Shown piece by piece: positions 6,660 to 58,172 of a stretch of 64,000 nt of DNA. Location: positions 96,679 through 160,678 of the forward strand of contig CAYOAM010000001.1 of assembly GCA_964402035.1 (NCBI GenBank), in the 5' to 3' direction. This stretch comes from an uncultured Candidatus Saccharibacteria bacterium (GTDB taxonomy: Bacteria > Patescibacteriota > Minisyncoccia > Phycocordibacterales > UBA918). Below the pieces are notes generated by a model that was not told the DNA's origin, did not search any database, and saw nothing but the letters and a program-made list of their open reading frames with translations. Position numbers and translations under genes: made by a program. The first letter of the stretch is position 1. Each line of letters begins with the position of its first letter.

Positions 6660-7184
6660 ATGAACACCGATCTCAGGAATGTACTGTTCTCATTTGGTGC
6701 AGTATTTCTGGTACTGTTTGGTACCAGCGATATCTATATGCGCACGCAGTTGCAGCAGGTCATATTGGAAAATGAGCAGATTCAAGAGGAACTTACAAAA
6801 CAAACTGAGCTCATCGAGCTTAATACAGATGATCCACTGGCTACCATGGACGACGTCAATGATGCTCTCACGGACACGCCAGTACCAGTGGTACAAAAAG
6901 CTCCTGACGTCGTAGTGCCAAGCAAAGATATCGTGGAAGTCTCAAAGAAGGCTAGCCTTCCTGCAGTACCGAAGCCTGTTTCTGTAGATACCACAGCAGC
7001 CGATGCCGCTTTAGTTGCACGTCTCAAGGCTGAAGCGCAATTGGCAGCAGAAAAGCAAAAGGCCATTGATGCGGCAAAAATAAAAGCTCAAGAATTGGCA
7101 AAATCTATCGCCGCAGAGAAGAAAAAGATAGACCAAGCTGCTGCAGCGAAAAAGAAGAAAAGTCGCCAGTCACGAGCGAGTTAG
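6660..7184 (+). CDS. Membrane-anchored coiled-coil protein, Ala/Lys-rich, hypothetical
   Basis: N-terminal TM helix followed by a low-complexity AEKQKAIDAAKIKAQE-type coiled coil. No catalytic motifs. Confidence 0.4.
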   Translation: MNTDLRNVLFSFGAVFLVLFGTSDIYMRTQLQQVILENEQIQEELTKQTELIELNTDDPLATMDDVNDALTDTPVPVVQKAPDVVVPSKDIVEVSKKASLPAVPKPVSVDTTAADAALVARLKAEAQLAAEKQKAIDAAKIKAQELAKSIAAEKKKIDQAAAAKKKKSRQSRAS

Positions 7185-10139: not shown

Positions 10140-10508
10140 ATGAACATAAAAGAAATATTAAAACTTAGCAGCATTCCCGTTGTGCTCGCGTCGTTGTGCT
10201 GTCTCTCGCCAGTCATCCTTGTGCTCCTGGGTCTCGCTTCAGTGAGTTTTGCTTCCTCACTTGCAGATACGTTTTATGGGGAATACAAGTGGGTCTTTCG
10301 TATGGTGGGACTCATAGCCCTTTTAGGATCCCTCGCGTACTACTTACGCCGCACAAAAGGTATTTGCACGATCGATGATGTAAAGCGAAGACGAAATGAA
10401 ATATTAAACTACATTGCACTCACGGTCATTGCGGGGGTTGTGGGGTACATTTTTTTCCTCTATGTTGTGGTGCACTATGTAGGTGTGTGGCTAGAGATTT
10501 GGAAGTAG
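10140..10508 (+). CDS. Small MerT-like membrane protein with vicinal Cys pair in TM1
   Basis: LASLCCLSPVILVLLGLAS resembles the MerT TM1 CC motif. Three TM helices, 122 aa. The 3' end is duplicated as a 39-bp repeat at 11503-11541. Confidence 0.35.
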   Translation: MNIKEILKLSSIPVVLASLCCLSPVILVLLGLASVSFASSLADTFYGEYKWVFRMVGLIALLGSLAYYLRRTKGICTIDDVKRRRNEILNYIALTVIAGVVGYIFFLYVVVHYVGVWLEIWK

Positions 10509-10518
10509 TTGGTATTCT

Positions 10519-10821
10519 CTAACCCGTGACGTTAATATTTTGAGATGATGGGTGAGGTTTAGCTTTTGGATCCGATTGGTTTGCTGTGTTTATAGCATCC
10601 TTTATGATGGGTAAAAAGAAATAGATACTTGTCGCCATAGCAATGGAAGCGACAGTGAGAAGTAGATACGCTGCTTGCTTTTCATTTCCAACAATATGCT
10701 TCCTGACTAAAAATGCCGCCATGCCCCGTCGGAGACGTTGATGTTGTCCGTGTGAGACTTGTATATTTTCTTCTTGAAATGTGACTAATGTCATAAATGC
10801 TGGTCTAATTTTAACACACAC
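10519..10821 (-). CDS. Small membrane protein, hypothetical (pilin-module partner)
   Basis: Single TM helix. Positional paralog of 11633..11839, each lying immediately downstream of a pilin gene. Confidence 0.3.
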   Translation of the reverse strand: MCVKIRPAFMTLVTFQEENIQVSHGQHQRLRRGMAAFLVRKHIVGNEKQAAYLLLTVASIAMATSIYFFLPIIKDAINTANQSDPKAKPHPSSQNINVTG

Positions 10822-10872
10822 GGTATGCCTTTATATTAGGGAGTGAGATCTTGCTTTAGTACTGTACTACGG

Positions 10873-11475
10873 TCATGGTGACGAATATATGCACGCGCTA
10901 TCATCTGGTGCTCGGTTGAATACTACGTTGCCACCCCACGCCTCAATTCCACCAGGATCTATACCCCCGTCGTTCATGGTTGCATGGTATCTTTTACCCG
11001 CCCAACGGAATGTCATCCAGTATCCACCATCATAGACATGTACGCATCCAAGCCTCATGCCAGTGTATGCGTCGGTATAATTCATACCTATGTAGCTTGG
11101 TCCTATATGCTTTAGATATAAATAACCACTATATGCGCCTGGAAATGGGACTTGGGGGTAGTTCGGGTACGGTATATTAGCTAGATAGGGTAATAAAATG
11201 TTTCCAAGATCGTCCCACTCTGCCGGGTAGTAACTCTGACGTCTGAATGGTGCAATAGTGACAGGATAATATCCGTTTGTGTCATGATATAACTCCACAG
11301 CATTTTGTACGGCTCGCAGGTCAAGTGCTGCTTTTGCAATAGACGTCGCTTCACGCGACTTTGTAAGTGAAGCGAGTACCACACTTGCCAAAAGTGAAAT
11401 AATAGCAATGACTACCATAAGCTCAATAAGTGTAAAGCCGTAAACATGATTCAGCTTTTTCAGTAGTCTCTTCAT
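10873..11475 (-). CDS. Type IV pilin-like protein (prepilin-type N-terminal cleavage/methylation domain)
   Basis: MKRLLKKLNHVYG|FTLIELMVVIAII: short basic leader, G-1, F+1, E+5, hydrophobic helix. Start chosen at MKRLL. Confidence 0.8.
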   Translation of the reverse strand: MKRLLKKLNHVYGFTLIELMVVIAIISLLASVVLASLTKSREATSIAKAALDLRAVQNAVELYHDTNGYYPVTIAPFRRQSYYPAEWDDLGNILLPYLANIPYPNYPQVPFPGAYSGYLYLKHIGPSYIGMNYTDAYTGMRLGCVHVYDGGYWMTFRWAGKRYHATMNDGGIDPGGIEAWGGNVVFNRAPDDSACIYSSP

Positions 11476-21977: not shown

Positions 21978-22709
21978 TTGGATTACGGTCTTATGAAATA
22001 TAATTTTTGGGCTTATGGTGCTATTGCAGTACTTGCTCTAGTAGGTATCGGGTCACCCGTCACATGGGTTTCGGCCCACGAGGAACACGCCTATGAAATA
22101 AAGGGTGTTCCTTATGAGATTATTGTAGGGTCGCTTGGTGAACCAGTGATTGTGGACGATAAAACAGGTGTTGATCTTGAAATTGTCCGGAAAGGTACGC
22201 CGCTTGTTGGAGCGAATAATACATTACAGGTGGAGCTGATCGCGGGAGACACAAAGCGCACGCTTTCCCTGAATCCTGTATGGGGAAGTGAGGGAAGATA
22301 CAAGGCAAACTTTATTACGACGGTTGCGACCACCATCTCGTATCGGTTCTTTGGAACGCTTGAGGGGGTGCCGATTGATCTTACGTATACCTGTAATCCC
22401 GCGGGACATCCGCAGTCAGAAGAAAACAAAGAGCGCGTCACGATATCACCGGACGTCGTTCAGACATTAAAAAGTGGAGCATTCGGTTGCCCGCAGTCAA
22501 AAGCTGCTTTTGGTTTTCCTGAACCAGCGTCAGAAATACATCTGTTAGCACAAGATGTAAAAGCACAAAGTGCCGAGGTTCCGGTCAATACAGCACCAGC
22601 AGCAGACGAGAGTAGTTCACTTATTACCACGCTCTTAGGATTTCTATCAGTCTCCGTGTTGGTACTGCTATTTCTAGTCGTACGACTCTACCGCAAGCCC
22701 ACGCTCTAG
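21978..22709 (+). CDS. YcnI-like (DUF1775) membrane-anchored copper-binding protein
   Basis: Signal peptide ending VSA, so the mature protein starts with His (His-brace style). Beta-rich domain and a C-terminal TM anchor. Immediately upstream of a CopC-CopD gene, as in the B. subtilis ycnI-ycnJ pair. Confidence 0.5.
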   Translation: MDYGLMKYNFWAYGAIAVLALVGIGSPVTWVSAHEEHAYEIKGVPYEIIVGSLGEPVIVDDKTGVDLEIVRKGTPLVGANNTLQVELIAGDTKRTLSLNPVWGSEGRYKANFITTVATTISYRFFGTLEGVPIDLTYTCNPAGHPQSEENKERVTISPDVVQTLKSGAFGCPQSKAAFGFPEPASEIHLLAQDVKAQSAEVPVNTAPAADESSSLITTLLGFLSVSVLVLLFLVVRLYRKPTL

Positions 22710-36954: not shown

Positions 36955-38433
36955 ATGTCACGCACCTACATAAAAATAGGAGTACGCACAACCCTCATAG
37001 TGGGGGTTGTCGCGTTACTGGTGTATGCACTCGGTGTACGAGGATCTTCTGTTGGGGCAACATTTGCAACGGGGTCAGGCACCGGTGGTCTTGAGATGAA
37101 AATTGATAGTCGTACGATCTATAATGGCGTCTTGCAACCAGCGCTCTCGTGGGCACTCAAGGACCTCACTCCGTGGGCAGACCACTTCTTTAACTTCGGT
37201 GACGTAAAGCCCGGAGATCACGGTACCAACACGATCTCAATTCACATCAAAAAGAACCCAGCATGGGTATGCCTTGATTTTGTGAACCTCAAAGACAAAG
37301 AAAACGGCAAAAATGAACCAGAATCACAGGTTGATGGAACAAGTGATGGTGAGCTCTCACATGAGCTTGAGTTTTTCTCGTGGATGGATGATGGGGATAA
37401 TAAGTACGAAATAGGGGAGCGCGCCCTGTTTGGGACATCCACGCAATCTGCGTTTGAGGTGCTCAAAGGAAAGAGCTATGCACTCGCGGATGCACATACT
37501 GGCACAGCTTTTCCTGCGGGACAAACAAAGTATGTGGGTGTGGTGTGGTGTGCGGGTGATCTCAGTGTCAGTACGACGACGGCCTCTATAGCATGTAATG
37601 GTGAGGCGATGGGTAACGAGGCGCAAACTGACTCCATGAGCCTTGATGTGGCGCTCCGTGCAGTCTCATCAAAAGATCAAAAAAGGTTTTCGTGTACCAA
37701 CGATACACCTGAACCGGCGTTGTGTTTGGCGCGTGGCAACCTCCTCAAGAATGGTAGCTTTGAAAAACCAAAAGTGGGGAGAGCAAAGTGGGACGTATTC
37801 CCTTCAGTTGTGGGCGGACTCGAATGGACGGTCGCTTGGGTTACTCCTGCAACCAATTCTCCTACGGTACCACTCTTGGAATTGCAGCGAGGACTTCCTG
37901 CGTTCGAGGGCAAACAGTTTGCAGAACTCGATTCAGATTTCTATGGACCTCCGGGCGGCAACTATAAAGGCGAAAAAACGTCTGTCGCGATTTCGCAGCT
38001 TGTCGACACAACTCCCGGCGCTCGGTACACACTGACCTTTGCTTTCTCTCCATTGCCGAAAACAAATGCTGCGGACAATGCGGTGCAGGCAGTGATCGGT
38101 GGAGTAGCGCATGGCGCGCCAATCTCACGCAATGGTTCAGCGCTTACGACAACATCATGGACCGAACATACCTTCTCGTTTGTGGCGACGAGTACCAAGA
38201 CCCGGGTAGCGCTCGTTGATGTAGGCAAGACCACTTCGTTTGGAACACTCGTGGATGATGTCTGGTTCGGATGCAAGAATCAGCGAGAGGATGATGCAGA
38301 CGATCATAATGATCATAACGACGACTATGATACGCCGTGGCATGAGGAGCATACGCGTGGTGGCTGGACGTCTGTTGTTGGGTACTGCAAAGAACTTTGG
38401 GATGATATAAAAGGTAAGGGAAAACGCGTATGA
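36955..38433 (+). CDS. TasA/camelysin-like secreted protein, third paralog, with DUF642-like C-terminal domain
   Basis: N-terminal domain paralogous to the two above (FNFGDVKPGDHGTNTISIHIKKNPAWVC). C-terminal NGSFEKPKV...GKQFAELDSDFYGPPGG. The signal-region motif is degenerate. Confidence 0.65.
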   Translation: MSRTYIKIGVRTTLIVGVVALLVYALGVRGSSVGATFATGSGTGGLEMKIDSRTIYNGVLQPALSWALKDLTPWADHFFNFGDVKPGDHGTNTISIHIKKNPAWVCLDFVNLKDKENGKNEPESQVDGTSDGELSHELEFFSWMDDGDNKYEIGERALFGTSTQSAFEVLKGKSYALADAHTGTAFPAGQTKYVGVVWCAGDLSVSTTTASIACNGEAMGNEAQTDSMSLDVALRAVSSKDQKRFSCTNDTPEPALCLARGNLLKNGSFEKPKVGRAKWDVFPSVVGGLEWTVAWVTPATNSPTVPLLELQRGLPAFEGKQFAELDSDFYGPPGGNYKGEKTSVAISQLVDTTPGARYTLTFAFSPLPKTNAADNAVQAVIGGVAHGAPISRNGSALTTTSWTEHTFSFVATSTKTRVALVDVGKTTSFGTLVDDVWFGCKNQREDDADDHNDHNDDYDTPWHEEHTRGGWTSVVGYCKELWDDIKGKGKRV

Positions 38434-43235: not shown

Positions 43236-44138
43236 TTAGTTACTTATCGTGATGTCAATAACTTCAGATACTTCATCTTCTGAAAGTCCAGTGCGATCGA
43301 CAATTTCAGCAATGATCTCATTTTCATCGGTGAGATCAAGAGTGAAACTCTGGTGAGAGTCATCCTCGTAACTGATTCGAACGCTTGCTTCACCATCTTC
43401 TATTTCAACTTCAATCTCGAGCTCTCCGTCTTCAAAGCTGATAAGGTCCCGTACGGTATCTTCATCAATATCAAGCTCTTCGGCAATACCCTCAATGACT
43501 TCGTTGTGTTTGGTGGTATCAAGTGAGAAAGAATCCTCCGTTCCGTCAGCAAATTCAACCGTAACCTCAGAATCTCCCCCATCAAATTCGACGCTAATAT
43601 CTTCCACTTCATCTGCTAGGTCAACAAATTCGATCAGGTCATCGACATCTTCGCGGTCCATGTTTAGCTCGTCCGCAAGCTCGTCTATGATGTCATTTCT
43701 ATCGGTGGTATCGAAACTAAATGTCTCGGTGTCACCATCTTCGAACGTGACCACTGCTTCGGCTTCGTCTTCCTCCTCGTTCAGCGTCACTTCAACCTCA
43801 TCTACTTCTTCGGAATCTTCATCGTCGTTTGAATCGTCGTGATCATCATTTGACTCATCTTCATCATGATTTGCGTCGTCATGGTCGTCATTTGATGCAT
43901 CATCATGACTGTGACCTCCTTGCTGTTGCAGTATGCTGAGGAGCTGTCTCAAAAGTGTTATCAGTGCCTGCATCTGCTTTATTTGAGCAGATTCAGCGGT
44001 ACCAAGTGTAACAGTAGCAGAGTGGGTTTTTGCGTGACTTGCTTCACCTTCATCTATGCTGTGGTCGGCGGCCACTCTTCCGAGCGGGAGAGCAATAAAT
44101 GCAAGGATGACCAACAATGTTAACGATGTTTTTTTCAT
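43236..44138 (-). CDS. Secreted acidic repeat protein (paralog of 21556..21975) with three 45-aa internal repeats
   Basis: Signal peptide; IKQMQALITLLRQLLSIL; HDDASNDDHDDANHDEDESNDDHDD; three repeats of FSxDTTxxNxxIxExAxEL..D.EDV.DLIxF. Confidence 0.6.
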   Translation of the reverse strand: MKKTSLTLLVILAFIALPLGRVAADHSIDEGEASHAKTHSATVTLGTAESAQIKQMQALITLLRQLLSILQQQGGHSHDDASNDDHDDANHDEDESNDDHDDSNDDEDSEEVDEVEVTLNEEEDEAEAVVTFEDGDTETFSFDTTDRNDIIDELADELNMDREDVDDLIEFVDLADEVEDISVEFDGGDSEVTVEFADGTEDSFSLDTTKHNEVIEGIAEELDIDEDTVRDLISFEDGELEIEVEIEDGEASVRISYEDDSHQSFTLDLTDENEIIAEIVDRTGLSEDEVSEVIDITISN

Positions 44139-44487
44139 ACGATTAAGTTCAAGTTAAGCGGCCAAAAGGTCCCATAGCTAATAATAGAGTACTACACAAG
44201 AATCCGCATAAAACTCCACACGACGTTGGAGTACTGGGTCCTTATGGATACAGTATACGGACAAAAGCACTTTGAAGCGTGCTTTTGTCCACAGCATGGA
44301 GACTTCTTTTTTGAAGTATTTGTTTCTGAAATATGGGAACATATATACCATCGATATAGGGTGTTGTTAGGGGGGTGCCCTTTACAGACCCTAGTATGTC
44401 CTGTATGATTTTTTTAAACTTTGTCGTCCACGAAGAAGGGTCCGATTTCTCGGTATTTTATTGATATAACACGTTTTAGATAAACCT

Positions 44488-47400
44488 ATGAATAGCCTCA
44501 CAAAATTGGGCTTTGCGGTAGAAAAAACACTTGCTGTGCTGCTGCTTTTGAGTATGGTATTTGGGCAGTATGCATTGGTATTTGCTGAAATTGAAGGGGA
44601 GACTATTCCCCCTGTAGAAGAGGTTGTCAATGAACCGGATACACTAGGCGATGCTCCGGTTTCAAATGAAGAGACAGCGACCGATGAGGAGACACCTCCA
44701 CCCGTGCCTGCGGACGAGTCGTTTAAAGAAGAGACTGAAGAATCGTCCCTTGCACCTGCTACTTTCGCTGCAGTGGTGCCACTCTCTACGATATCCGGGT
44801 TCAAATTTGATGATGTTGATGCTGACGGTGTGTGGGATGCATCTGAAGCTGGTCTTCCTGGTTGGACGATTGAATTGCTTGATACAGACAGCGAAGTAGT
44901 GGGCTCGGATGTCACAGACACAACAGGGCAGTACTCATTTGATGTCGCTCCTGGCATTTTTACCGTTCGTGAGGTCGCACAATCTGGATATATACAGACT
45001 GCACCCGCGGATCATACTTGTTTTTTTAACGTAGAAGAGGATCCGGTTTTGGATCAAAATGAAGGCGCAAAATTTGCTGCAGCACCACATGGTTATATCT
45101 GTAATTTTGGTAATCACCAGATTGAGGTCCCGGACGACACCATGGGGCAATGTATTGGTGAAAATTTGCTTGCAAACGGCAGTTTTGAGAATCCTGATGT
45201 TGTCGATGGTGCTGGGTGGGATATCTTTACTTCCGGAACTTCGGGCCTTGCGTGGGTTGTTTCGTGGGTCAGTGCATTTGTCGGGGCACCGTCTGTAGCA
45301 AATATTGAGTTTCATGGAGGAGTTAATGGCTGGTTGGCAGAAGATGGAAGCCAATATGCTGAATTAGATTCCGATTGGGCGGGGCCAACCAGTAATCAGG
45401 CTGGTGAACAGGCATCATCACGCATTAGTCAAACAGTCCCAACTATTCTTGGGGGAACATACCAACTTACCTTTGATTTTTCTGCGCGTCCTAACTATGG
45501 AACAAGCGAAAATCGCGCTGGTGTGTACATTGATGGCGTACTTACCGATACAGTGTCTGCAAACGGTACCGCTCTTTCAAATACAAGCTGGACCGAGCAC
45601 AGCTACTCATTTATCGCGGATACCTCAACGGAGATTGCGCTTGCTGACGCTGGTACACCAAACTCAGTCGGTTCATTTGTGGATAATGTCTCACTATGCC
45701 TCATTGAGCGGCCAGTAGTACCACAGTGTGCACCGGAACTAAATGGTGGATGGGCAGATCATGTTGTGGGGACACCATCTCAGGGCGATAGAAAAGACGG
45801 ATCCGATGTCTTGGGGTCCCGTTCTGACGCCACCGATGCACTTGATGCTTCAGATTGGGAGCCAGGAGATACTGATGGCTTTTATAGCCTCGGTTTTGGT
45901 GGATCGATCGTAGTGTCTTTTGACAGTTTTGTGCCAGATATCGCTGGAAACGATATCTCGATCCATGAGGCAACAAACGGAGCATTTCCAGCTGGATACC
46001 CTGAAGAAAAGGCATTGATAGAGGTAAGTCAAAATGGTACCAATTGGTTTGCCGTTGGCACTGCAACAAATCTTGTTGCCGCTGATCGTGTGAGTTATTT
46101 TGATGTTGCAAGCACAGGACTCTCGTGGATCAAATTTGTACGTATAACAGATACGTCAGACACGGCACTATACGCTCAATATCCTGACGCTGACGGTTTT
46201 GATCTTGATGCTGTTGATGCAACACAAACCGTGTGCGATGAGCCTGAAGACCACGAACATGACACCGCGACGCTCTATGGATATAAATGGAATGACCTAA
46301 ATAACAATGGTGTAGAGGATGAAGGTGAGCCAAAACTTTCAGGATGGACCATTACCGCCACCGTTGGAACCACAACGTATGTTGATGTGACTGACGCACA
46401 AGGTGCGTATAGTTTAGAGGTGCCGGCAGGGTCAGTGGGTAGTGTGGATGAGACTGCACAGGCAGGATGGTTGCAGACGTATCCACTTGAAAGTGGTGTA
46501 TGCAATTTTGAAGTTGGTGAAGGGGCAGAATTTTTCTGTAAATTTGGAAATTACCATCTTCCCACACAGACTACCTGCGATGCCGAGGTAAATCTCTTGG
46601 GTAATGGAAGTTTTGAAGCACCCGCCGTTGGTGAGGCGCTGTGGGATGTATTTCCTTCTGAGCTGGATGGACTGGTGTGGACTGTTGCATGGCTCGATAC
46701 GACCGGAGCGCCAGAAGTACCACTCCTTGAATTGCAAAGTGGGCGTACGCCAGCAGATGGGTTGCAGTTTGCAGAACTTGACTCAGACTTTTATGGTCCG
46801 CCCGGTGGCCCATACAGTGGAGAGCATACCTCAGTGAAAATATCACAAGCCGTATCCACTATCCCAGGATATCTATACAAGCTTTCATTCCAGTTTTCTG
46901 CGCTGCCATACTCAGCCTCGTCTGATAATGCAGTAGCGGTTAGATTGGGAGGGGTTCAGCAGGGGGCACCGGTCACTAGTGATGGTTCCTTAAGTCCTGA
47001 TACCGTATGGTCAACCTATACCTATAACTATGTTGCTACAGGGTCTACGACAGAAGTTTCTCTTGCTGATGCAGGATTAACAAATTCGTTCGGTACATTG
47101 GTAGATGATGTCGCCTTTACATGTCTGGGCGCGAATCAGGGCGATGGACCAGAGGGAAGTGGTGATAATCCGAACCCTGACAATACCGACAATGGTGGAG
47201 GCGGTGGCGGAGGTGGCGGTGGTAGCCGTATAAGTCTCTCGGGAGGAGGAGGTTCGTCACAAGGTGGAAATAATAATAGTTCTGACGGGGAAGTGCTTGG
47301 CGACAGTGACCACAAATCTGTACCTGAAGTTGCTGGCGCTCAGACCGCCATCTTGCCTACCGGCGCTCCTAATACTGGTTTTGGTGGTACATCTGACGCA

Positions 47401-47490
47401 GCAACAACTACGGCACTTGAAATAATTGCCTTTATGTCGTTTCTTCTTATGCTCGGGGGTATTGTCGTGTTGCGACGCATGGACGCATAA
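44488..47490 (+). CDS. Giant cell-surface protein: signal peptide, 2x SdrD/Cna-B-like domains, 2x DUF642-like domains, Gly-rich linker, C-terminal LPXTG-like sorting signal
   Basis: GFKFDDVDADGVWD...VREVAQSGY (Cna-B-type) twice. NGSFENP...AELDSDWAGP twice. G10 linker. C-terminus ILPTGAPNTGFGG + hydrophobic helix + RRMDA. Confidence 0.8.
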   Translation: MNSLTKLGFAVEKTLAVLLLLSMVFGQYALVFAEIEGETIPPVEEVVNEPDTLGDAPVSNEETATDEETPPPVPADESFKEETEESSLAPATFAAVVPLSTISGFKFDDVDADGVWDASEAGLPGWTIELLDTDSEVVGSDVTDTTGQYSFDVAPGIFTVREVAQSGYIQTAPADHTCFFNVEEDPVLDQNEGAKFAAAPHGYICNFGNHQIEVPDDTMGQCIGENLLANGSFENPDVVDGAGWDIFTSGTSGLAWVVSWVSAFVGAPSVANIEFHGGVNGWLAEDGSQYAELDSDWAGPTSNQAGEQASSRISQTVPTILGGTYQLTFDFSARPNYGTSENRAGVYIDGVLTDTVSANGTALSNTSWTEHSYSFIADTSTEIALADAGTPNSVGSFVDNVSLCLIERPVVPQCAPELNGGWADHVVGTPSQGDRKDGSDVLGSRSDATDALDASDWEPGDTDGFYSLGFGGSIVVSFDSFVPDIAGNDISIHEATNGAFPAGYPEEKALIEVSQNGTNWFAVGTATNLVAADRVSYFDVASTGLSWIKFVRITDTSDTALYAQYPDADGFDLDAVDATQTVCDEPEDHEHDTATLYGYKWNDLNNNGVEDEGEPKLSGWTITATVGTTTYVDVTDAQGAYSLEVPAGSVGSVDETAQAGWLQTYPLESGVCNFEVGEGAEFFCKFGNYHLPTQTTCDAEVNLLGNGSFEAPAVGEALWDVFPSELDGLVWTVAWLDTTGAPEVPLLELQSGRTPADGLQFAELDSDFYGPPGGPYSGEHTSVKISQAVSTIPGYLYKLSFQFSALPYSASSDNAVAVRLGGVQQGAPVTSDGSLSPDTVWSTYTYNYVATGSTTEVSLADAGLTNSFGTLVDDVAFTCLGANQGDGPEGSGDNPNPDNTDNGGGGGGGGGGSRISLSGGGGSSQGGNNNSSDGEVLGDSDHKSVPEVAGAQTAILPTGAPNTGFGGTSDAATTTALEIIAFMSFLLMLGGIVVLRRMDA

Positions 47491-48162
47491 ATGAACCCAC
47501 AGCAAAAAAAAGAAAACATAGGTCGCCACCGTCGTGTGGCGACCTATGTTGTAATGGGGCTTGCATGCATAGTGTATCTAAGCGCAAGTTACCTTTTGTG
47601 GAAACAGCGGGCTCCTCTGGCCGAAACCATCGTACAAGAATCAATACCCACAGCAACAACATCGCTTGGAATATCTTTGCCTCGTGCAATACCAATACGT
47701 CTTCATATACCGAAAATAGGGATTGATGTACCATTTGCGGCTCCGCTTGGTGTAAAAGAGAACGGGGAAGTTGAAGTGCCGAAAACATATGATGAAGTTG
47801 GGTGGTATCAACATGGTCCAACGCCGGGTGAGCGAGGTCCATCGGTCATCTTTGGCCATGTTGATTCGAAAGCAGGACCTGCAGTGTTTTATTCGCTAGG
47901 ACAGGTTGCTCCAGGTGATGAGGTGGTCGTCGATCGCATCGATGGGACGAGTGCAACATTCATCATTCATAAACTGGAACGGGTTCCTCAAGGTTCGTTT
48001 CCTACTGAATCGGTGTACGGAGACGTCGATCAATCTGAATTGCGACTCATAACATGTACTGGTACGTATGATCGCGGAGTATTGCGCTATAGTCACAATC
48101 TTATTGTATACGCAACGCTTGCAGGCAATATTTCTGCAACGACGTCACCGGTTAGTTTCTAG
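47491..48162 (+). CDS. Sortase (class E/F-like transpeptidase)
   Basis: N-terminal TM anchor; His motif VIFGHVD; catalytic LRLITCTG (TLxTC); downstream conserved Arg (RGVLRYS). Starts one nt after the stop of the sorting-signal protein. Confidence 0.8.
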   Translation: MNPQQKKENIGRHRRVATYVVMGLACIVYLSASYLLWKQRAPLAETIVQESIPTATTSLGISLPRAIPIRLHIPKIGIDVPFAAPLGVKENGEVEVPKTYDEVGWYQHGPTPGERGPSVIFGHVDSKAGPAVFYSLGQVAPGDEVVVDRIDGTSATFIIHKLERVPQGSFPTESVYGDVDQSELRLITCTGTYDRGVLRYSHNLIVYATLAGNISATTSPVSF

Positions 48163-48225: not shown

Positions 48226-49419
48226 ATGATGAAGTTTCTTGGAAAGCTGTTTATCCCACAAGAGTCGAATAACTATCAACCTACTATTCTGGAGAAGGCT
48301 GCTGCTCTAGGTATACTCTTGTTGATTTTTCTGAGTTTTACGGTCGTCAATATCCAGTCATTGGTCTTGGTGAGTTCTGATTGGTTTGCTTCGGCTATTC
48401 TCCCGTCTGTGCTTATTGATCTCACCAATGATTCAAGAAAGGACGAAAAGATGTCGTTTTTAACTCGAAGTGCCGTCTTGGACGAAGCGGCATCACTCAA
48501 AGCGCGAGATATGGCAGAGCATGAGTATTTTGCTCATGATAGTCCGCTTGGCATAACACCGTGGTATTGGTTCGAGCGAGCAGGTTATGACTATGTTTAT
48601 GCGGGTGAAAACCTTGCAGTACATTTTACTGATTCTGACCAGGTCGTGGATGCGTGGATGAAGTCGCCCGGGCATCGAGCAAATATTTTGAATGAACATT
48701 ATACCGAAATTGGCATAGGTACTGCGCGTGGTACCTATAAAGGTGCACCCACTATTTTTGTGGTGCAACTTTTTGGGCATCCTATGACTGAAGCGGAGAA
48801 AAGTCGCGTTGCAGCTCTTACAAGAGCACCTAAACAGGCTGCGACCATTGTCGCATCATCTACGACAATCCCCAAAGCTTCTTCAAGCGCATCAGTTCTT
48901 GATGCGCAGGATGAGCAAGCGGTGCCTGTTGAAGAGGTTCAGATAACAACGGTTGCCGGTACAACATCACCAAAGATTACTCGCATGGAGCCAATTCAGG
49001 ATAACGTTCCCACTACTACACAGGCGACTGCAACGAGGCCTGAGCTTGCTAGTGTTAAGGATACATCACCGACGATTTCTCAAACGCAAACGTTCATGAC
49101 ACTTTCTGATGTTGCAACAATCTCCCCGTTCGTCGGGCGCGGCATCTTATCGTCAGACATTGGTGAAACGAGTGGAAATACAGCAGAAATACGCCAAAGT
49201 ACACCGCTCTATGCTGCGGCTACGCGACCACACCTGGTGTTATCAATCATATACTCACTTCTCGCACTCTTTGTCTTTTGCTCGCTAGTACTTTCGATTA
49301 TTGTGGAATGGCGTCGTCAACATCCTACACAACTTATGTATGGTATTGGACTTATGGTTGCTCTCTGGATTGCACTTTACGTGCACTCTGCACTAGTTTC
49401 AGGTGTACTCATTGTCTAA
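48226..49419 (+). CDS. CAP/SCP (PR-1-like) domain membrane protein with Thr/Ser-rich linker and C-terminal TM
   Basis: CAP motifs HEYFAHDSP and GHRANILNEHYTEIGIG. N- and C-terminal TM helices. Confidence 0.7.
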   Translation: MMKFLGKLFIPQESNNYQPTILEKAAALGILLLIFLSFTVVNIQSLVLVSSDWFASAILPSVLIDLTNDSRKDEKMSFLTRSAVLDEAASLKARDMAEHEYFAHDSPLGITPWYWFERAGYDYVYAGENLAVHFTDSDQVVDAWMKSPGHRANILNEHYTEIGIGTARGTYKGAPTIFVVQLFGHPMTEAEKSRVAALTRAPKQAATIVASSTTIPKASSSASVLDAQDEQAVPVEEVQITTVAGTTSPKITRMEPIQDNVPTTTQATATRPELASVKDTSPTISQTQTFMTLSDVATISPFVGRGILSSDIGETSGNTAEIRQSTPLYAAATRPHLVLSIIYSLLALFVFCSLVLSIIVEWRRQHPTQLMYGIGLMVALWIALYVHSALVSGVLIV

Positions 49420-52528: not shown

Positions 52529-53362
52529 ATGCGGCGACATCTTAAAGCTGGTCTTATTGGTCTTTCTGCTGTGATACTCACAACGTTGGGTATCTCTGCG
52601 TCCGATACCCTCGAAGGCGTTTCGGGCTCACTCCTAAGCATGGCATTAAAAAGTGAGGAGATTAGAACAGGGTGCCCGTCTGATATGGCTGAGGTGACGG
52701 TTGGCTCTCGAAGAATATGTGTTGATGTGTTTGAGGAGAGCGCGGCACCGGTGTGTCCGCATCGTGACCCACAAAATGTACAGGAAACAGAACGAAATAT
52801 TGGTGGTGCGGGGTGTATTCCTGAAGCAAAAAAGGACACTAAGCCGTGGAGATTTATAAGTATGAGTCAAGCGCAACGCGCATGTGCGAGCGCTGGTAAG
52901 CGTTTGCCAACCAACGAAGAATGGTATCGTGCGGCGCTCGGTACGCCTACAAATAACGACAGGTTATGCAATCTCCATACACCACAGACGCAAGAGCCTC
53001 GAAATGCTTCGGAAACTGCTTGCAAATCAACCGTCGGGACATACGATATGATTGGCAACGTATGGGAATGGGTTGATGAATCTGTTACGGAGGGTTCGTA
53101 CAGAAACCGTCAAATACCGCAAACAGGGTACGTGTCCGGTGTTGATGCAGACGGTGTTGCATTGCTTTCGGCGACGGTAGAGGACGCACTGTATGGTAAT
53201 GATTATGCATGGTCTACTCCTACAGGGGTACGCGGTATGATACGTGGCGGCTTTTATGGTAGTGGTGAAGACGGTGGTCTCTATACATTGAATGCATCGA
53301 TTGATCTTGCTTTTAGCAGTACTGGTGTCGGTTTTCGCTGTGTACGAGATTACGAAAAATAA
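52529..53362 (+). CDS. Membrane-anchored FGE-sulfatase (SUMF1/DUF323) domain protein
   Basis: N-terminal TM; NVWEWVDES; RGGFYGSG; GFRCVRD: hallmarks of the formylglycine-generating-enzyme fold. Confidence 0.7.
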   Translation: MRRHLKAGLIGLSAVILTTLGISASDTLEGVSGSLLSMALKSEEIRTGCPSDMAEVTVGSRRICVDVFEESAAPVCPHRDPQNVQETERNIGGAGCIPEAKKDTKPWRFISMSQAQRACASAGKRLPTNEEWYRAALGTPTNNDRLCNLHTPQTQEPRNASETACKSTVGTYDMIGNVWEWVDESVTEGSYRNRQIPQTGYVSGVDADGVALLSATVEDALYGNDYAWSTPTGVRGMIRGGFYGSGEDGGLYTLNASIDLAFSSTGVGFRCVRDYEK

Positions 53363-53389
53363 AGCGAGTATCAGCTATACTATAAGGTA

Positions 53390-54232
53390 ATGAAACGCGT
53401 CATGAAAAGTGCGCGGTGGATTTTTGTCACCGTTGGTGTCATTGCTCTTACGAGTATCACGGTAGATGCTACCTTGAGTGGACATTCGCTATCACAATCT
53501 GCTCTAGGAATATTAGCGACATCGGTAACGGAGACCAATACTGGCTGTAGTGATGGTATGGCGCTCATTGGCGGTGATTTTAATGCCGTGTGTGTAGACA
53601 TATATGAGGCGTCGCCAGGCGCAACCTGTCCAAGCAAGGAGGTAGCGAATGTAAACGATACACGTACCAACATAAACACAGGCAGTTGTCTCCCGGCATC
53701 AACAGCCTCTGCAAAACCGTGGACGTATGTGACGTTGAATCAAGCGCAAGAACTCTGTGGTAGGGCAGGTAAGCGACTGTTAAGTAATGCAGAATGGTAC
53801 CGCGCGTCGTTAGGTTCTCCCGATATCGGAGGAGAAGTAGCATGTAATATTAGAACAGATGGCGCTATGCAGACGGGCAAGTACCCACAATGCGTCTCAG
53901 GTATGGGTGCTTTCGATATGATAGGGAACGTATGGGAATGGGTTGATGGGTCGGTAGAAGAAGGAAAGTATCGGGATCGTATGCTACCGACAAGTGGGTA
54001 TGTTATTGAAACCGATGCTGATGGTGTTGTTACGAAGACACAGGGGTCCGCTTCGTCCGATTTTCATGAAGATTATTTCTGGTCTGAAGCTTCTGGTGTG
54101 TATGGTATGCTGCGCGGCGGGTTTTATGGGAGCGGAAGTGATGCAGGGGTGTATAGTCTCCATGCAAAAACAGCAACATCGTTTGCAGGCGCCGCAATCG
54201 GTTTTCGCTGCGCACTTGATTTGAAACGTTAA
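53390..54232 (+). CDS. Membrane-anchored FGE-sulfatase domain protein, tandem paralog
   Basis: NVWEWVDGS; RGGFYGSG; GFRCALD. Same architecture as the upstream gene. Confidence 0.7.
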   Translation: MKRVMKSARWIFVTVGVIALTSITVDATLSGHSLSQSALGILATSVTETNTGCSDGMALIGGDFNAVCVDIYEASPGATCPSKEVANVNDTRTNINTGSCLPASTASAKPWTYVTLNQAQELCGRAGKRLLSNAEWYRASLGSPDIGGEVACNIRTDGAMQTGKYPQCVSGMGAFDMIGNVWEWVDGSVEEGKYRDRMLPTSGYVIETDADGVVTKTQGSASSDFHEDYFWSEASGVYGMLRGGFYGSGSDAGVYSLHAKTATSFAGAAIGFRCALDLKR

Positions 54233-54233
54233 T

Positions 54234-56117
54234 ATGCAGTATTTTGCACTTTTACGCACAACAATGTTCGCACGTATGAGATTTGGTATCTCTACTGCTC
54301 TCGTGTACGGCGTTTTTTTCTTGCTTGGGATCTCTATCATTAGCGGTTTCTTATTTATATACAACAATCAATCACAAGCACGCAATATCACGACCTTTAG
54401 TGATACCTTGACTGATTCGGCGCCGGGTGAGTACTCAAATCATACGATTGAATTTCAGCTGGATGTTGCTGTCCCAGCAGGCGGATATATTCGTATTACA
54501 CCCGAAGATGGAGCCTTTACCATCCCGGCCGTCGATTTTGACATTGATCAAGTTGAACTTTTCGTTGCCCCACCATCCTTGGGCTATACCGTACGAGCCG
54601 CATCAAGTACTGCTGACGCTACGTATGATGGTATTGCTATAACAACCGGTACATCGGGCAATGTGCTCTATACATTGAATGCATCCGCAGGTATTAGTGC
54701 AGGAAGCGACGTGCGAATAAAGATAGGTACACACACCACAAACTCCACTACCACGGATGTTGGTGTGTTGAATCCTGTAGCAACAGGCACGCGTCAAATA
54801 CTCATAGAAGCTGGCGGTGGTGCGAGTGATGCAACAGCTCGAGCTCTTGTTGCAATTATTGATTCAGTTGGTGTTGGCCCAGTGGATACGACAGAAGAGA
54901 TACCGCCTGTGCGCTTCAATGGAGCGCCAACGGGGACGCTGTCAGGAACTGTAACCGGCGTTGAGATTTCCCTTGAAACAGATGAATTTGCACGCTGTAG
55001 ATTCTCTACTGCTTCAGGGACGCCCTTTTTGTCCATGACCGATGAGTTTACCGTGACGGGGTCTATTTTTCATTCCTTGGTGCGAACTGGGTTATCTGCA
55101 GATACTACGTATACATTTTTTGTGCGTTGTATAGATGATGAGAACAACTACAATATCGATGACTACGAGATAACGTTTACCATTCCACCACCTCCCGAAG
55201 GAACCCCAGGTGATGGAGATGATGGGAGTGATGGCGAAGACGATGGTTCAGGTTCTGGTGATGATGGTTCGGGGGATGGTACGACAGGTGGCGATGAAGA
55301 TAGCGATGAAAGTGGTGGTGGAACACGAGGCGGCGGCGGCGGTGGTGGTGGAACAAACAGCGATGATGATGTGTACGAAAGTGGTGACGCAACTGTCATT
55401 ATAAGCGGTTATTCATTTCCAAGTAGCAAGGTGTCGATTTTAGTCGATGGCGATATTGCAGATACAGTGACCGCAAATAGTGCAGGTGTGTTTTCTGTCA
55501 CGCTTGATGCCATAGCGAGGGGTGTCTACAGCTTTGGTGCATACGCTACCGATCGCAGCAATGTTAAATCTTCGACTTTTTCAACGACATTTACGGTTAC
55601 CGGTTCTCGTGTCTCTACACTCTCGAATATTAATCTCATGCCGTCGATATCTGTTGCTCCAAATCCCGTTGATGTCGGAGCGACAGTCACATTTTCTGGC
55701 TATGCAATAGCAAATAGCACCATCACGATTGAAACACAGCAGGACAAGAATGGTACGTCCCCAAAAACGCTTACCGCAACGTCAGATGGTATCGGTAAAT
55801 GGTCTGCAACGCAGTCCACGGCAGGTTTTGCCAAGGATAAGTGGAAGGTGCGCGCTAAGTCCGCGCAAATTGAGGGCAGTATATCTACAAATTTTTCGCA
55901 GTACACATACTATGCTGTGGGTACTGCAGCGGTGCCACCAACGGGTAACAATTCTGACCTAAATCGTGATGGAAAAGTAAATTTGATTGACTTTTCCATC
56001 CTGCTTTTCCATTGGAACACGAATGGTGGTGCGTCTGACCCTCCTGCGGACATCAATCGCGATGGTCGTGTTAGTTTGACTGACTTTTCGATCATGATCT
56101 TCAACTGGACCGGCTAA
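54234..56117 (+). CDS. Surface protein with Ig-like domains, Gly/Asp-rich linker and C-terminal dockerin-like Ca-binding repeat pair
   Basis: C-terminus DLNRDGKVNLIDFSILLFHW and DINRDGRVSLTDFSIMIFNW: two DxNxDGxVxxxD F-hand segments, 31 aa apart. Confidence 0.6.
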   Translation: MQYFALLRTTMFARMRFGISTALVYGVFFLLGISIISGFLFIYNNQSQARNITTFSDTLTDSAPGEYSNHTIEFQLDVAVPAGGYIRITPEDGAFTIPAVDFDIDQVELFVAPPSLGYTVRAASSTADATYDGIAITTGTSGNVLYTLNASAGISAGSDVRIKIGTHTTNSTTTDVGVLNPVATGTRQILIEAGGGASDATARALVAIIDSVGVGPVDTTEEIPPVRFNGAPTGTLSGTVTGVEISLETDEFARCRFSTASGTPFLSMTDEFTVTGSIFHSLVRTGLSADTTYTFFVRCIDDENNYNIDDYEITFTIPPPPEGTPGDGDDGSDGEDDGSGSGDDGSGDGTTGGDEDSDESGGGTRGGGGGGGGTNSDDDVYESGDATVIISGYSFPSSKVSILVDGDIADTVTANSAGVFSVTLDAIARGVYSFGAYATDRSNVKSSTFSTTFTVTGSRVSTLSNINLMPSISVAPNPVDVGATVTFSGYAIANSTITIETQQDKNGTSPKTLTATSDGIGKWSATQSTAGFAKDKWKVRAKSAQIEGSISTNFSQYTYYAVGTAAVPPTGNNSDLNRDGKVNLIDFSILLFHWNTNGGASDPPADINRDGRVSLTDFSIMIFNWTG

Positions 56118-56188
56118 TGATGTGGGTAAATCATGGCAGACGTTATGCGTTTGTATCGTATAATGGTGCTATGTAGTTTCGGCACTAT

Positions 56189-56650
56189 ATGTCCTTTCTT
56201 CAACGTCTAAAAGGTAAAGGGGTCCACGCGCAGAAATTGCAATCTGCCGAGGAGGAAACTGCACTTGATAAAATAGTGCAGCTGGATGTTGATGTATTTC
56301 AGACCGATGACACGATCGTCGTGTATGCACAGGCAGCTGGAGCCGAGCTTGCGGATATTAAGGTTTCAATTGAAGGGGATGCTGATATTGTGCTTATAGA
56401 AGGAAAACGTTTACGTCCTGATCGCATAGCATTTCCTAAAATAAAACCTGAAGGCGCTTTTTTTACGGAAGAGTGTATTTGGGGAGATTTTTACCGACGG
56501 ATCATTTTGCCAGAAGGTGTTGACATAGCACATGCTGAAGCAAAGGTAAAAAATGGTGTTTTGATACTCATTTTGCCACTCCTGCGGTCAGAAGAACGTG
56601 AGAAGGTGCAGCTGCATGTAAAAAATGCCGAAAAAGGTCGCAAATCATAA
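56189..56650 (+). CDS. Hsp20/alpha-crystallin small heat-shock protein
   Basis: ACD motifs: VDVFQTDDTIVVYAQAAG, GEF.RRIILPEGVD, AKVKNGVLILILP. Confidence 0.8.
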   Translation: MSFLQRLKGKGVHAQKLQSAEEETALDKIVQLDVDVFQTDDTIVVYAQAAGAELADIKVSIEGDADIVLIEGKRLRPDRIAFPKIKPEGAFFTEECIWGDFYRRIILPEGVDIAHAEAKVKNGVLILILPLLRSEEREKVQLHVKNAEKGRKS

Positions 56651-56651
56651 T

Positions 56652-58172
56652 ATGGCGTCACGTATTAAGTTAAAACTACTACTGGCAAGCCTCGGCTTCG
56701 TCGTCTTTAGTTTTTTTGGTTTTATGACGACCACGTACGCAGCGGAGGTTCTGATTGCACCAGCGTCAGGAACCTATACTGCAGGGCAGACATTTACAGC
56801 AGCTATACGTGTCAATCCACAGGGCAAAAGTGTCAACGCCGTGGAATCAAAACTTGCATTTGATACTTCAAAACTATCGGTGGTGAGCTTAAGTAAAACA
56901 GGGTCCGTCTTTTCACTATGGACAACAGAACCGACTTTTTCTAATAGCGCAGGTACTATCGAGTTTGGCGGAGGGAGTCCTACACCTTTTACCTCACAGT
57001 CGACATTGGTGACGGTGACCTTCAGGGCTGTTGCTGAAGGTTCAGTTACGGTTGATTTTAAAAATGCATCGGTGCTCGCTGCTGACGGCCTTGGAACAGA
57101 CGTTTTTTCAGCATCAGTGAAGGGTGCGTATATCATTACTGCGGCTGCTACTCCTACGACACCAACTGAAACACCAACAGATGAAACGCCAAAACCTGAG
57201 CAAGAGGAGGAGAACAACGATGCAGCGATAACCTTTGGTGATCCTCCATTGCCACCTGAAGTAGGTTCCAAGGTATTTCTTGATTCGGATCTTTGGTATG
57301 CAACATCAACAGGACTCTTTACCTGGGAGATACCATTTGATGTGAATGGACTGGCGGTTGATGTATCAACGTCTTCGGATTTTGCACCGGTAACCAAAAT
57401 CGATCCTCCTGTGGCGGAGATGCTCTTGACGGAGAAGGAATTGATGGACGGTGTTCAGTACCTAAACGTACAGTTTAAAAACCAAGTGGGTTGGGGAGGC
57501 ATCACGCACCGTCTCATAAAGATAGACACGACTCCTCCTGAGCAATTTACGATAAATGTACGCGCTGGTAATACCCCAAAAACATTTCCGATATTGATTT
57601 TTGAAGCAAAAGACCCAACCTCAGGGGTCCAGAAGTATGAGTTATTTATCGCTGATCGTGAGCCAGTTACCGTCACACCAGATGAGGCACGCTTGGGCTA
57701 TTTGCTCACTGACCTCGTCGATGGCACGTATACCGTCAAGGTTATCGCCCATGACAATGCGGGCAATATCCGAGAATCATCAACACCACTCCTTATTACC
57801 GCAGGCTGGCAGCCGAAGGCTGCCGAAGACAAAGGTTCTGCATTGTGGGCTCTCTTTACATTTACCAACGTATTTATACTTCTACTCATAGCGCTCATTG
57901 TTGCTCTTACGGCATATATTTTCTACGAACGAAAGCAGTTTGGACGCAAAGAAACAAAATTGCGCAAGGAAACCAAGGAAATTCAAGATCAAATGGAGAA
58001 AATATTTTCGGCCCTACGTGACGAGATCCAAGATCAAATTAAGTCTATTACCAAGAAGCCGCGACTCTCAAGAAGTGAACGCGAAGCGGTTGAAAATCTC
58101 GGAAATGCACTCGAAGTATCTGAAACCTTGATCGAAAAAGAGATTGTAGACGTACAAAAAATACTTAAATAG
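56652..58172 (+). CDS. Cohesin-domain surface protein with C-terminal TM and coiled coil
   Basis: Signal anchor. The cohesin-like beta-sandwich pattern is PASGTYTAGQTFTAAIRVNPQGKSVNAVESKLAFDTSKLSVVSLSKTGSVFSLW...GTIEFGGG...TLVTVTFRAVAEGSVTVDF. C-terminal TM plus KQFGRKETKLRKETKEIQDQMEK coil. Confidence 0.55.
   Translation: MASRIKLKLLLASLGFVVFSFFGFMTTTYAAEVLIAPASGTYTAGQTFTAAIRVNPQGKSVNAVESKLAFDTSKLSVVSLSKTGSVFSLWTTEPTFSNSAGTIEFGGGSPTPFTSQSTLVTVTFRAVAEGSVTVDFKNASVLAADGLGTDVFSASVKGAYIITAAATPTTPTETPTDETPKPEQEEENNDAAITFGDPPLPPEVGSKVFLDSDLWYATSTGLFTWEIPFDVNGLAVDVSTSSDFAPVTKIDPPVAEMLLTEKELMDGVQYLNVQFKNQVGWGGITHRLIKIDTTPPEQFTINVRAGNTPKTFPILIFEAKDPTSGVQKYELFIADREPVTVTPDEARLGYLLTDLVDGTYTVKVIAHDNAGNIRESSTPLLITAGWQPKAAEDKGSALWALFTFTNVFILLLIALIVALTAYIFYERKQFGRKETKLRKETKEIQDQMEKIFSALRDEIQDQIKSITKKPRLSRSEREAVENLGNALEVSETLIEKEIVDVQKILK

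Follow-up and report, generated by a model that had tools for sequence, protein, structure and literature searches.

A class F sortase gene abutting a giant surface-protein gene with a divergent GVDTG-type sorting signal in a Candidate Phyla Radiation genome

We analysed a stretch of 64,000 nucleotides from contig CAYOAM010000001.1 of an uncultured Candidatus Saccharibacteria bacterium (assembly GCA_964402035.1, positions 96,679 to 160,678), here called the window, in which two adjoining genes on the + strand encode a surface protein of 1000 aa (the cargo) and a sortase. The stop codon of the cargo gene (TAA, 47488-47490) directly abuts the ATG of the sortase gene at 47491, with zero bases between the two open reading frames (ORFs), as the original prediction, made from the sequence alone, had described. 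The nearest relatives of both proteins carry the names Kaiserbacteria, Pacebacteria, Parcubacteria, Paceibacterota or Patescibacteria. The features of the gene pair are as follows (HMM, hidden Markov model; TM, transmembrane segment).

44381-44409, + strand: promoter-like site TTTACA-17-TATGAT, 79 nt 5' of the cargo start (10/12 consensus match, weak)
44488-47490, + strand: cargo gene, secreted surface protein of 1000 aa (ORF plus Pfam and NCBIfam domain matches)
44488-44586, + strand: predicted Sec signal peptide, residues 1-33 (MNSLTKLGFAVEKTLAVLLLLSMVFGQYALVFA, followed by E; hydrophobic 19-mers at residues 7-35)
44794-45006, + strand: first SdrD_B or Cna-B-type stalk domain, residues 103-173 (PF17210; 47.5 bits for the segment alone)
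45163-45693, + strand: first DUF642 or choice-of-anchor C module, residues 226-402 (TIGR04362 stretch; DUF642 25.4 bits for the segment)
45700-46290, + strand: central domain, a beta-sandwich of the galactose-binding-like type (discoidin, CBM32, F-lectin)
46621-47127, + strand: second DUF642 module, about residues 712-880, best HMM stretch 783-876 (PF04862; 27.8 bits for the segment; boundaries approximate)
47356-47388, + strand: sorting motif P957-T-G-A-P-N-T-G-F-G-G967 (codons read directly)
47410-47478, + strand: C-terminal TM at about residues 975-995, then Arg-Arg at 996-997 (hydropathy up to 2.47 at 977-995)
47491-48162, + strand: class F sortase gene, 223 aa (NF033748, PF04203), with an N-terminal membrane anchor at about residues 17-39 and a catalytic domain at 63-216
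47857-47859, 48055-48057 and 48085-48087, + strand: codons for His123, Cys189 and Arg199 of the sortase

The promoter-like site is a candidate only, as the region holds 5 such sites compared with 8.8 in shuffled sequence. Along the cargo, the signal peptide is followed by an acidic linker, an SdrD_B domain, a DUF642 module, the discoidin/CBM32-like central domain, a second SdrD_B domain, a second DUF642 module, a Gly-rich linker and the sorting signal. When the whole protein was scanned, SdrD_B scored 65.1 bits and DUF642 (PF04862) 43.6 bits (cutoff 27), each in two stretches, in agreement with the two Cna-B-like and two DUF642-like modules proposed earlier. The choice-of-anchor C model TIGR04362 also marked two stretches, with 92 bits, below its curated cutoff of 120. 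The central domain is the best conserved module of the cargo across homologues, and a PDB sequence search gave no significant match to it. Because three galactose-binding-like modules are carried on two Cna-B-type stalks, the cargo is probably a lectin or adhesin. It looks like a stalked, trivalent one when the DUF642 modules, too, are regarded as galactose-binding-like.

Only two regions of the cargo contain hydrophobic 19-mers, residues 7-35 and 975-997, the latter ending in RR. The N-terminal cleavage site is a putative one, and the N-termini of homologues are similar. The C-terminus reads ...AGAQTAILPTGAPNTGFGGTSDAATTTALEIIAFMSFLLMLGGIVVLRRMDA (the same end is given longer or shorter as ...AILPTGAPNTGFGGTSDAATTTALEIIAFMSFLLMLGGIVVLRRMDA), and the stretch spanning the motif reads AILPTGAPNTGFGGTS; QTAILPTGAPNTGFGGTSD. 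The tripartite organization seen in the original prediction was thus recovered as a motif at residues 957-967, a TM at about 975-995 and the Arg-Arg pair at 996-997. In this tail the pentapeptide equivalent to LPXTG is A960-P-N-T-G964 (APNTG).

The 223-aa ORF contains the sequences IFGHVD and LRLITCTG, from which a membrane-anchored sortase had been proposed, and matches the Pfam Sortase family PF04203 with 84 bits (E 9e-24). Classification by HMM assigned the protein to class F: the NCBIfam model NF033748 scored 178.6 bits (E 6.3e-53) against a curated cutoff of 166, so that the enzyme is an ordinary member of the curated family. The class D and GN models scored about 20 bits, and the class C model gave no match at E<=0.01. 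A housekeeping class E enzyme recognising LAXTG, which had been considered earlier, is ruled out by the score of the class E model (24.6 bits, cutoff 160), and the cargo tail has no LAXTG. The closest relatives of the sortase (approximately 45-57% identity) come from metagenomes and from assemblies of the Candidate Phyla Radiation (CPR), where NCBI names them 'class F sortase [Candidatus Kaiserbacteria / Pacebacteria]'; sortases of Actinomycetota follow with approximately 40-50% identity across the catalytic domain. A search of the 64-kb window with a class F-derived HMM found no second sortase.

In an AlphaFold2 model built from 36 sequences (predicted local distance difference test score, pLDDT, 90.8), residues 3-39 form an N-terminal helix, which is followed by a low-confidence linker and a beta-barrel. 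At E<=1e-3 this model has matches to more than 100 sortase structures. Foldseek ranks class E, C, A and D sortases highest, with 16-24% identity; none of its matches is a close class F structure, and a PDB sequence search with the sortase returned no match. His123 and Cys189 are invariant in 36/36 sequences, and Arg199 is present in the window sortase and in 26/36 aligned relatives. Arg185 of LRLITC (48043-48045), four residues before the catalytic Cys, is likewise invariant in 36/36 class F sortases. Residues 12-16 (47524-47538) contain a near-universal twin-arginine sequence, RR-x-x-[VI]-A-A, with a superficial likeness to the motif of the twin-arginine translocation (Tat) pathway.

The C-termini of ORFs around 94 class F loci (80 genome contigs and 14 metagenomes) were surveyed, and neighbours were counted at the 85 loci of Actinomycetota and CPR whose upstream sequence exceeded 800 nt. 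At 58/85 loci, an adjacent ORF ended in G-[AGVS]-x-x-[TA]-G, a hydrophobic segment and a basic tail, and in 53 of those 58 it lay upstream on the same strand. Of 3083 six-frame ORFs in the remainder of these loci, 9 ended in this signal. These counts come from simple ORF, hydropathy and regular-expression heuristics applied to phylogenetically related sequences, with spurious frames among the background ORFs. Alignment of 56 motif-anchored tails gave the pattern P-x-G-[G27/A25]-[V23/A15/P13]-[A/D/E/N]-[T36/A20]-G-[G/A/D/F]-G(51/56)-[G/S]. The G two positions beyond [TA]-G was present in 51/56 tails even though the search pattern had not imposed it. Tails of the CPR relatives read VLGEQVS-[IV]-VP-x-GAP-[ND]-AG-AGG, and the window motif agrees with the 56-tail pattern at every position. 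When an HMM was built from the 56 other tails, with the window left out, and run against every six-frame ORF of 40 aa or more in the window, the cargo was the only match (27.6 bits, E 5.5e-8); the next best ORF had an E value of 0.7.

Neither a hydropathy and regular-expression scan nor the tail HMM detected further substrates within the 64-kb window, and the LPXTG anchor model TIGR01167 gave no match to the cargo at E<=0.01. A 243-aa ORF at 21978-22709 (+) ends in ...EVPVNTAPAADESSSLITTLLGFLSVSVLVLLFLVVRLYRKPTL, with a TM and a basic tail. Its 'PVNTAP' had made it a candidate second substrate, and it was rejected when the tail HMM did not match it.

The signal type is known to NCBIfam curators as the 'GVDTG sorting domain' (NF058571, a 44-position model with a cutoff of 29 bits). 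Four of six actinobacterial tails beside class F sortases scored 36-46 bits on this model and the other two approximately 20 bits. Because of the former scores, the signal derived here from class F neighbours is, judging from the tails compared, the one that NF058571 describes. In the window cargo, profile positions 2-43 align to residues 957-997, and the TG of the profile falls on T963-G964. None of 12 other CPR tails reached the cutoff (tails with Thr 0-26 bits, tails with Ala 0-16 bits). The CPR form is therefore, at the level of sequence, a divergent variant missed by current annotation. The earlier description of the motif as unusual holds in that it is a non-LPXTG signal scoring below the curated cutoff; its type has a precedent, since NF058571 tails stand beside class F sortases of Actinomycetota. 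Our literature search found no publication on GVDTG as a sorting signal or on its pairing with class F, and the specificity of class F is not treated in a preprint on CPR pili, a paper on Tat tail anchors or Haft's myxosortase paper. As far as we found, the signal type is thus familiar to curators and apparently unpublished.

That this signal is handled by class F sortases rather than by other classes is supported most strongly by co-variation among homologues of the cargo, all of which are from CPR. After a shared (Q/E)VLGE linker, the homologues end in one of three ways: in the class F-type signal (GAPNAG, GAPNTG, GAPGTG, GAADAG or GAANTG), in LPRTG or LPVTG, or in a PG_binding_1 domain. Of seven homologues whose contexts were examined, six had a sortase gene directly downstream, and all six sortases were classified. 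Paralogues ending in GAPNxG or GAANTG were directly followed by a class F sortase in 3/3 cases (L099, L103 and L104; 165-176 bits). Paralogues ending in LPRTG adjoined a non-class-F sortase in 3/3 cases (L098, L100 and L101; 24-34 bits on the class F model), and these enzymes best resembled class D at a sub-threshold 45-51 bits. The LPVTG-ending protein P0150 (L102) had no sortase gene within its 13.6-kb context. No cargo with a canonical L[PA]xT[GAN] motif was found beside 90 class F loci.

Four held-out CPR loci (L105-L108) gave a concordant picture. A protein of 1056-1303 aa lay just upstream of the sortase gene in 4/4, and its tail (VVPFGGAAAGAGG, VVPAGAPNAGAGG, VVPYGGAAAGAGG, IVPLGAADAGAGG) matched the tail HMM with E values of 2e-7 to 3e-10. 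In three of these loci the cargo gene overlapped the sortase start by 8 nt, and in L106 the called genes were 60 nt apart; abutment or overlap of stop and start recurs across CPR class F loci. The proposal of a dedicated pair of a sortase and a substrate with a non-LPXTG signal is thereby borne out by comparison, from the class F neighbours and from the joint switching of signal and class. On this comparative evidence the pair is real and is a variant of a system known to databases. Its CPR form appears new in that it lies outside the curated model, carries giant lectin-like cargo and frequently has Ala in place of Thr. The sortases adjoining the LPRTG paralogues (L098:14392-14997, L100:9981-10592 and L101:7808-8413) are CPR proteins of approximately 200 aa that fall under all class cutoffs (140-165) and match the generic sortase model at about its own cutoff; they may form an unclassified CPR sortase lineage.

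Observed here are the order of the genes, their assignment to families and a conserved signal that occurs exclusively, and co-varies, with class F sortases; we consider it probable that these findings reflect a two-gene surface-display module in which a class F sortase recognises an extended motif and anchors a glycan-binding adhesin to the cell wall. The predicted export route of the 1000-aa cargo is Sec, by way of its N-terminal signal peptide, after which the C-terminal TM and the Arg-Arg tail would retain it in the membrane with the motif at residues 957-967 at the outer face. There the membrane-anchored sortase (His123, Cys189, Arg199) would recognise P957-TGAPNTGFG-G967. By analogy with LPXTG, which is cleaved between Thr and Gly, the predicted cleavage position is between Thr963 and Gly964, with attack by Cys189 and a thioacyl intermediate. 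The presumed acceptor is the amino group of a cell-wall precursor, to which transfer would leave the cargo covalently attached to the wall. Its likely biological role is that of a glycan-binding adhesin, plausibly for attachment to host cells or polymers.

Several observations weigh against this proposal. The Thr position is occupied by Ala in most CPR relatives, so that a Thr-Gly scissile bond is not universal. About one third of class F loci have no signal-bearing neighbour detectable by our heuristic. The window cargo itself scores 22.1 bits at full length and 26.7 bits as an isolated tail on NF058571, below the cutoff. In addition, the enzyme of Propionibacterium acnes, the only characterised class F sortase, is reported to use LPXTG (PMC8225981). 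A 2026 study that calls the physiological role of class F sortases unknown found no phenotype upon quadruple deletion of the class F sortases in Actinoplanes (PMC13251363). Because of the frequent Ala at the Thr position and the obligatory P-x-G and x-G-G flanks, the tails suggest a recognition mode that may differ from that of LPXTG enzymes.

It is improbable, in our judgment, that the sortase processes the signal without anchoring to peptidoglycan, that is, by releasing the ectodomain through hydrolysis or by transferring it to a surface layer (S-layer), a glycolipid or a CAP-domain membrane protein. In its favour, most CPR loci have a CAP-domain membrane protein in synteny with the pair, and the Actinoplanes deletions would fit such an outcome as well. 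However, paralogous cargo proteins exchange the class F-type signal for LPXTG or a peptidoglycan-binding domain at the same position, after the shared VLGE linker, and this interchange argues for the cell wall as the likely destination. Moreover, the characterised sortase classes are all transpeptidases acting on wall precursors or pilins (PMC8225981).

The original prediction took the motif to be LPTGA, and we give very little credence to a recognised pentapeptide L-P-T-G-A, LPXTG-like with a shifted or altered last position. P957, G959 and A960 do occupy conserved positions of the family motif. Against this, L956 and T958 are not conserved: homologues have V, I, A, M or Y before the Pro and L, A, V, F, Y, Q or N after it, giving the forms VP-L-GA, VP-A-GA, IP-T-GA, AP-V-GA and MP-L-GA at this site. 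The conserved core runs seven residues past 'LPTGA', through x-x-[TA]-G-x-G-G to G967, and the GVDTG profile puts its TG on T963-G964 and not on T958-G959. We therefore ruled out LPTGA as the motif on the variability of L956 and T958 and the conservation through G967; the pentapeptide APNTG had been overlooked. Judging from the aligned tails, the real recognition signal is most likely P-x-G-A-P-N-T-G-x-G-G.

Hardly credible is a third reading, in which the sortase is a pilus-type polymerase and the SdrD_B protein is polymerised as a pilin or fibre subunit. Stalk domains of the SdrD_B/SpaA-like type occur in pilins, and class C pilus sortases are among the closest solved structures, but class E, A and D sortases are just as similar in structure and the class C model found no match. 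The cargo is a single gene that adjoins no minor-pilin genes, its neighbours being a CAP-domain gene and a gene for an acidic repeat protein, and its 1000-aa multi-lectin architecture is typical of monomeric wall-anchored adhesins. We give the least credence of all to mere co-regulation of the two genes, with the tail as a plain membrane anchor or the substrate of an unrelated enzyme: it would account for the third of class F loci with no detectable signal-bearing neighbour, but not for the frequency of the signal beside class F sortases (58/85 versus 9/3083), the joint switching of signal type and sortase class among homologous cargo, the invariant catalytic residues, or a conserved P-x-G-A-x-x-T-G-x-G-G 7-12 residues upstream of the TM, which a plain anchor does not need.

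Beyond the two proteins, the module contains a conserved RNA hairpin within the 5' end of the sortase gene. Its position in the window and in other class F loci is as follows.

47515-47550, + strand of the window: 15-bp RNA hairpin, codons 9-20 of the sortase ORF, AACAUAGGUCGCCAC-CGUCGU-GUGGCGACCUAUGUU (terminator scan)
L099:12819-12881, L103:8008-8070, L104:9155-9217, L105:5103-5165: CPR hairpin sites
L106:4959-5018, L107:5028-5084, L108:5031-5093: CPR hairpin sites
L006, about 489-548, and L011, about 6767-6826: actinobacterial hairpin examples

The window hairpin is a perfect 15-bp inverted repeat that begins 24 nt past the cargo stop codon. Its 101-nt context folds at a minimum free energy of -39.6 kcal/mol (z -4.8), and 0/200 shuffled sequences were as stable. 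Stop and start abut or overlap in CPR, which leaves such an element no room between the genes. Among approximately 15 CPR class F genes whose 5' end is defined, 12 had a hairpin of 10-16 bp at +15 to +40 nt; three non-class-F CPR sortase genes had none. In a structure-blind MAFFT alignment of 11 sequences, 82.5% of the cells of the helix were paired, compared with 29-56% when the partner column was slid. Double-sided changes in the helix numbered 12, against 4.3 +/- 1.4 in shuffles, and 0/500 shuffles reached 12. Examples of covarying pairs are U-A (8) / C-G (3) and C-G (7) / U-A (4), and at the codon level Tyr-UAC goes with Val-GUA, His-CAC with Val-GUG and Tyr-UAU with Ile-AUA. The hairpin region encodes R-R-[YH]-x-x-[VI]-A-A-[FY], a peptide that covers the basic anchor and the beginning of the TM helix. 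Codon usage within it is biased, with GCG in 19/27 Ala codons (20% in the same genomes) and CGC or CGT in 22/22 Arg codons (53%), although p-values for this bias are optimistic because the sequences are related.

A covariance model of the hairpin scored 20-50 bits higher on the sense than on the antisense strand, and in 1.28 Mb it matched only the 5' ends of sortase genes. In each of the held-out loci L105-L108, the sole strong match (E<=9e-8) was the sortase 5' end on the sense strand, with E values of 3e-12 to 9e-8. The match in L106 falls upstream of the called sortase start, which was therefore probably mis-called. The hairpin also appears to be shared by Actinomycetota. In L011, GGTGACCGCCGCGGCAGC-ATT-GCCGCGGCGGTCACC encodes G-D-R-R-G-S-I-A-A-A-V-T at the same peptide position, and the minimum 60-nt folding energy was below that of all four control blocks in 56% of 73 Actinomycetota loci (20% expected), a folding signal to which codon bias may contribute, as Arg CGC and Ala GCG are reverse complements.

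Several other identities for the element were considered and either rejected or disfavoured. No Rfam family matches the hairpin, and together with the confinement of the covariance model to sortase 5' ends this excludes a known RNA family or a dispersed repeat. A DNA palindrome or operator is disfavoured by the G-U pairs that occur on the sense strand, the variable stem sequences and the excess of the sense over the antisense score, and a stimulator of frameshifting or readthrough at the cargo stop by the 24-nt spacer, which is too long. As for a canonical intrinsic terminator of the + strand, the scan flagged the - strand only, and the U-rich tail that is common in relatives is weak in the window. 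The most economical idea is that the hairpin, lying within the first 20 codons, would lower sortase output relative to the cargo, by attenuation, by stabilising the cargo transcript at its 3' end or by making early translation slower. Extended to both phyla, the scheme would have the signal, the class F sortase and the hairpin co-evolving as one module, the hairpin throttling synthesis of the sortase and shaping its N-terminus, and the giant lectin-like adhesins of CPR attaching to hosts; we put this forward tentatively and regard it as rather doubtful.

The gene that follows the sortase recurs in related loci.

48226-49419, + strand: CAP/YkwD-domain membrane protein, 397 aa (PF00188, 62.9 bits; hydrophobic N- and C-terminal segments)

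In L099, L103, L106 and L108, a CAP gene comes just after the class F sortase, and in L107 it is one gene further away; Peptidase_S24 and GH18 genes often come next. The module probably comprises three genes with the CAP/YkwD gene as its third, which may otherwise be no more than a neighbour conserved alongside the pair. In L104, two tandem c-di-GMP-II (cyclic di-GMP) riboswitch aptamers at 10833-10915 and 10965-11048 (-), which score 65.5 and 56 bits, both over the gathering score, sit between two small opposite-strand CAP-domain genes, directly upstream of one of these (10205-10723), and the class F module adjoins them. This arrangement suggests that in this CPR genome the CAP proteins are under the control of c-di-GMP. 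In the window, Rfam gave no match at gathering level.

Divergent from the cargo gene lies 43236-44138 (-), which encodes a secreted, extremely acidic protein of 300 aa with three repeats of approximately 55 aa (E-V-x-F-x-D-G-x-x-x-x-F-x-[LF]-D-T-T-D-x-N-x-I-I-x-x-[IL]-A-x-E-L...) and no significant Pfam match. About 6 kb upstream of the cargo, at approximately 36955-38433 (+), is a second DUF642 protein of 492 aa with a weak Pfam mark. No C-terminal sorting signal was detected in it, and it may be a paralogue with another anchor or a secreted protein. Finally, Pfam marked two FGE-sulfatase-domain proteins, a 627-aa dockerin-domain protein, an HSP20 and a protein with a faint cohesin match at approximately 52529-58172 (+), where a cohesin-dockerin surface assembly is possible.

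Among the six standard sortase classes (A-F), class F is understood least, and our analysis yields a testable substrate rule for it with natural controls, as the cargo signal switches with the class of the neighbouring sortase. The curated signal model misses the CPR versions, and such cargo consequently carries no annotation beyond hypothetical or DUF642 protein. For the biology of CPR, a giant multi-lectin surface protein with predicted covalent anchoring is a candidate host-attachment factor. The 11-residue motif, as an orthogonal recognition sequence, could serve protein ligation, and the conserved intra-coding hairpin is a candidate new cis-regulatory RNA.

Compared with known systems, the window pair resembles Staphylococcus aureus SrtA in its tripartite signal, in a His-Cys-Arg enzyme with an N-terminal anchor and in the presumed thioacyl transpeptidation. 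It differs in that the pentapeptide APNTG lies inside an 11-residue conserved motif with obligatory P-x-G and x-G-G, and in that the enzyme is dedicated and operon-linked rather than housekeeping. Among solved structures, the class E enzymes Streptomyces coelicolor SrtE1 and Thermobifida fusca SrtE, from high-GC Gram-positive bacteria, come closest (Foldseek E 4e-9, 22-24% identity); they also use a non-LPXTG motif (LAXTG), whereas the motif of the window is different and longer and its sortase falls far short on the class E HMM (24.6 versus 160 bits). Propionibacterium (Cutibacterium) acnes SrtF shares the class label used in the literature and is a membrane-anchored Cys transpeptidase, but it is reported to be a housekeeping enzyme acting on LPXTG (PMC8225981), a motif not seen in cargo beside our 90 class F loci.

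On the cargo side, Haft's choice-of-anchor C family (TIGR04362 / DUF642) is similar in that the DUF642 modules match it and that homologues end in alternative anchors. Here, however, the cargo scores below the cutoff (92 versus 120 bits), and the class F-type tail as one of the 'choices' has been established in this work from sequence alone. Hairpins that set expression within operons, by programmed mRNA decay or attenuation (PMC5927463) or as the attenuator of a pilus operon (PMC3894217), likewise place a stable stem-loop between a structural gene in high demand and an enzyme gene downstream, and the class F hairpin, too, is often followed by U-rich sequence. Unlike them, it lies inside the downstream coding sequence, at codons of about 9-20 and at the same position in two phyla, and it constrains the encoded peptide R-R-[YH]-x-x-[VI]-A-A-[FY]. 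With the actinobacterial class F/GVDTG systems, the window pair shares the sortase family, the order of cargo then sortase, the tripartite tail and the motif register P-x-G-[GA]-[VAP]-x-T-G-x-G-G. The CPR tails are distinguished by the preceding VLGEQVS-[IV]-VP linker, usually by Ala for Thr, and by TM segments that are shorter and less rich in Ala and Gly. Their cargo is 600-1800 aa long, whereas actinobacterial cargo is mostly 120-330 aa, and their stop and start codons abut or overlap, whereas the actinobacterial median gap to the start of the tblastn match is approximately 200 nt.

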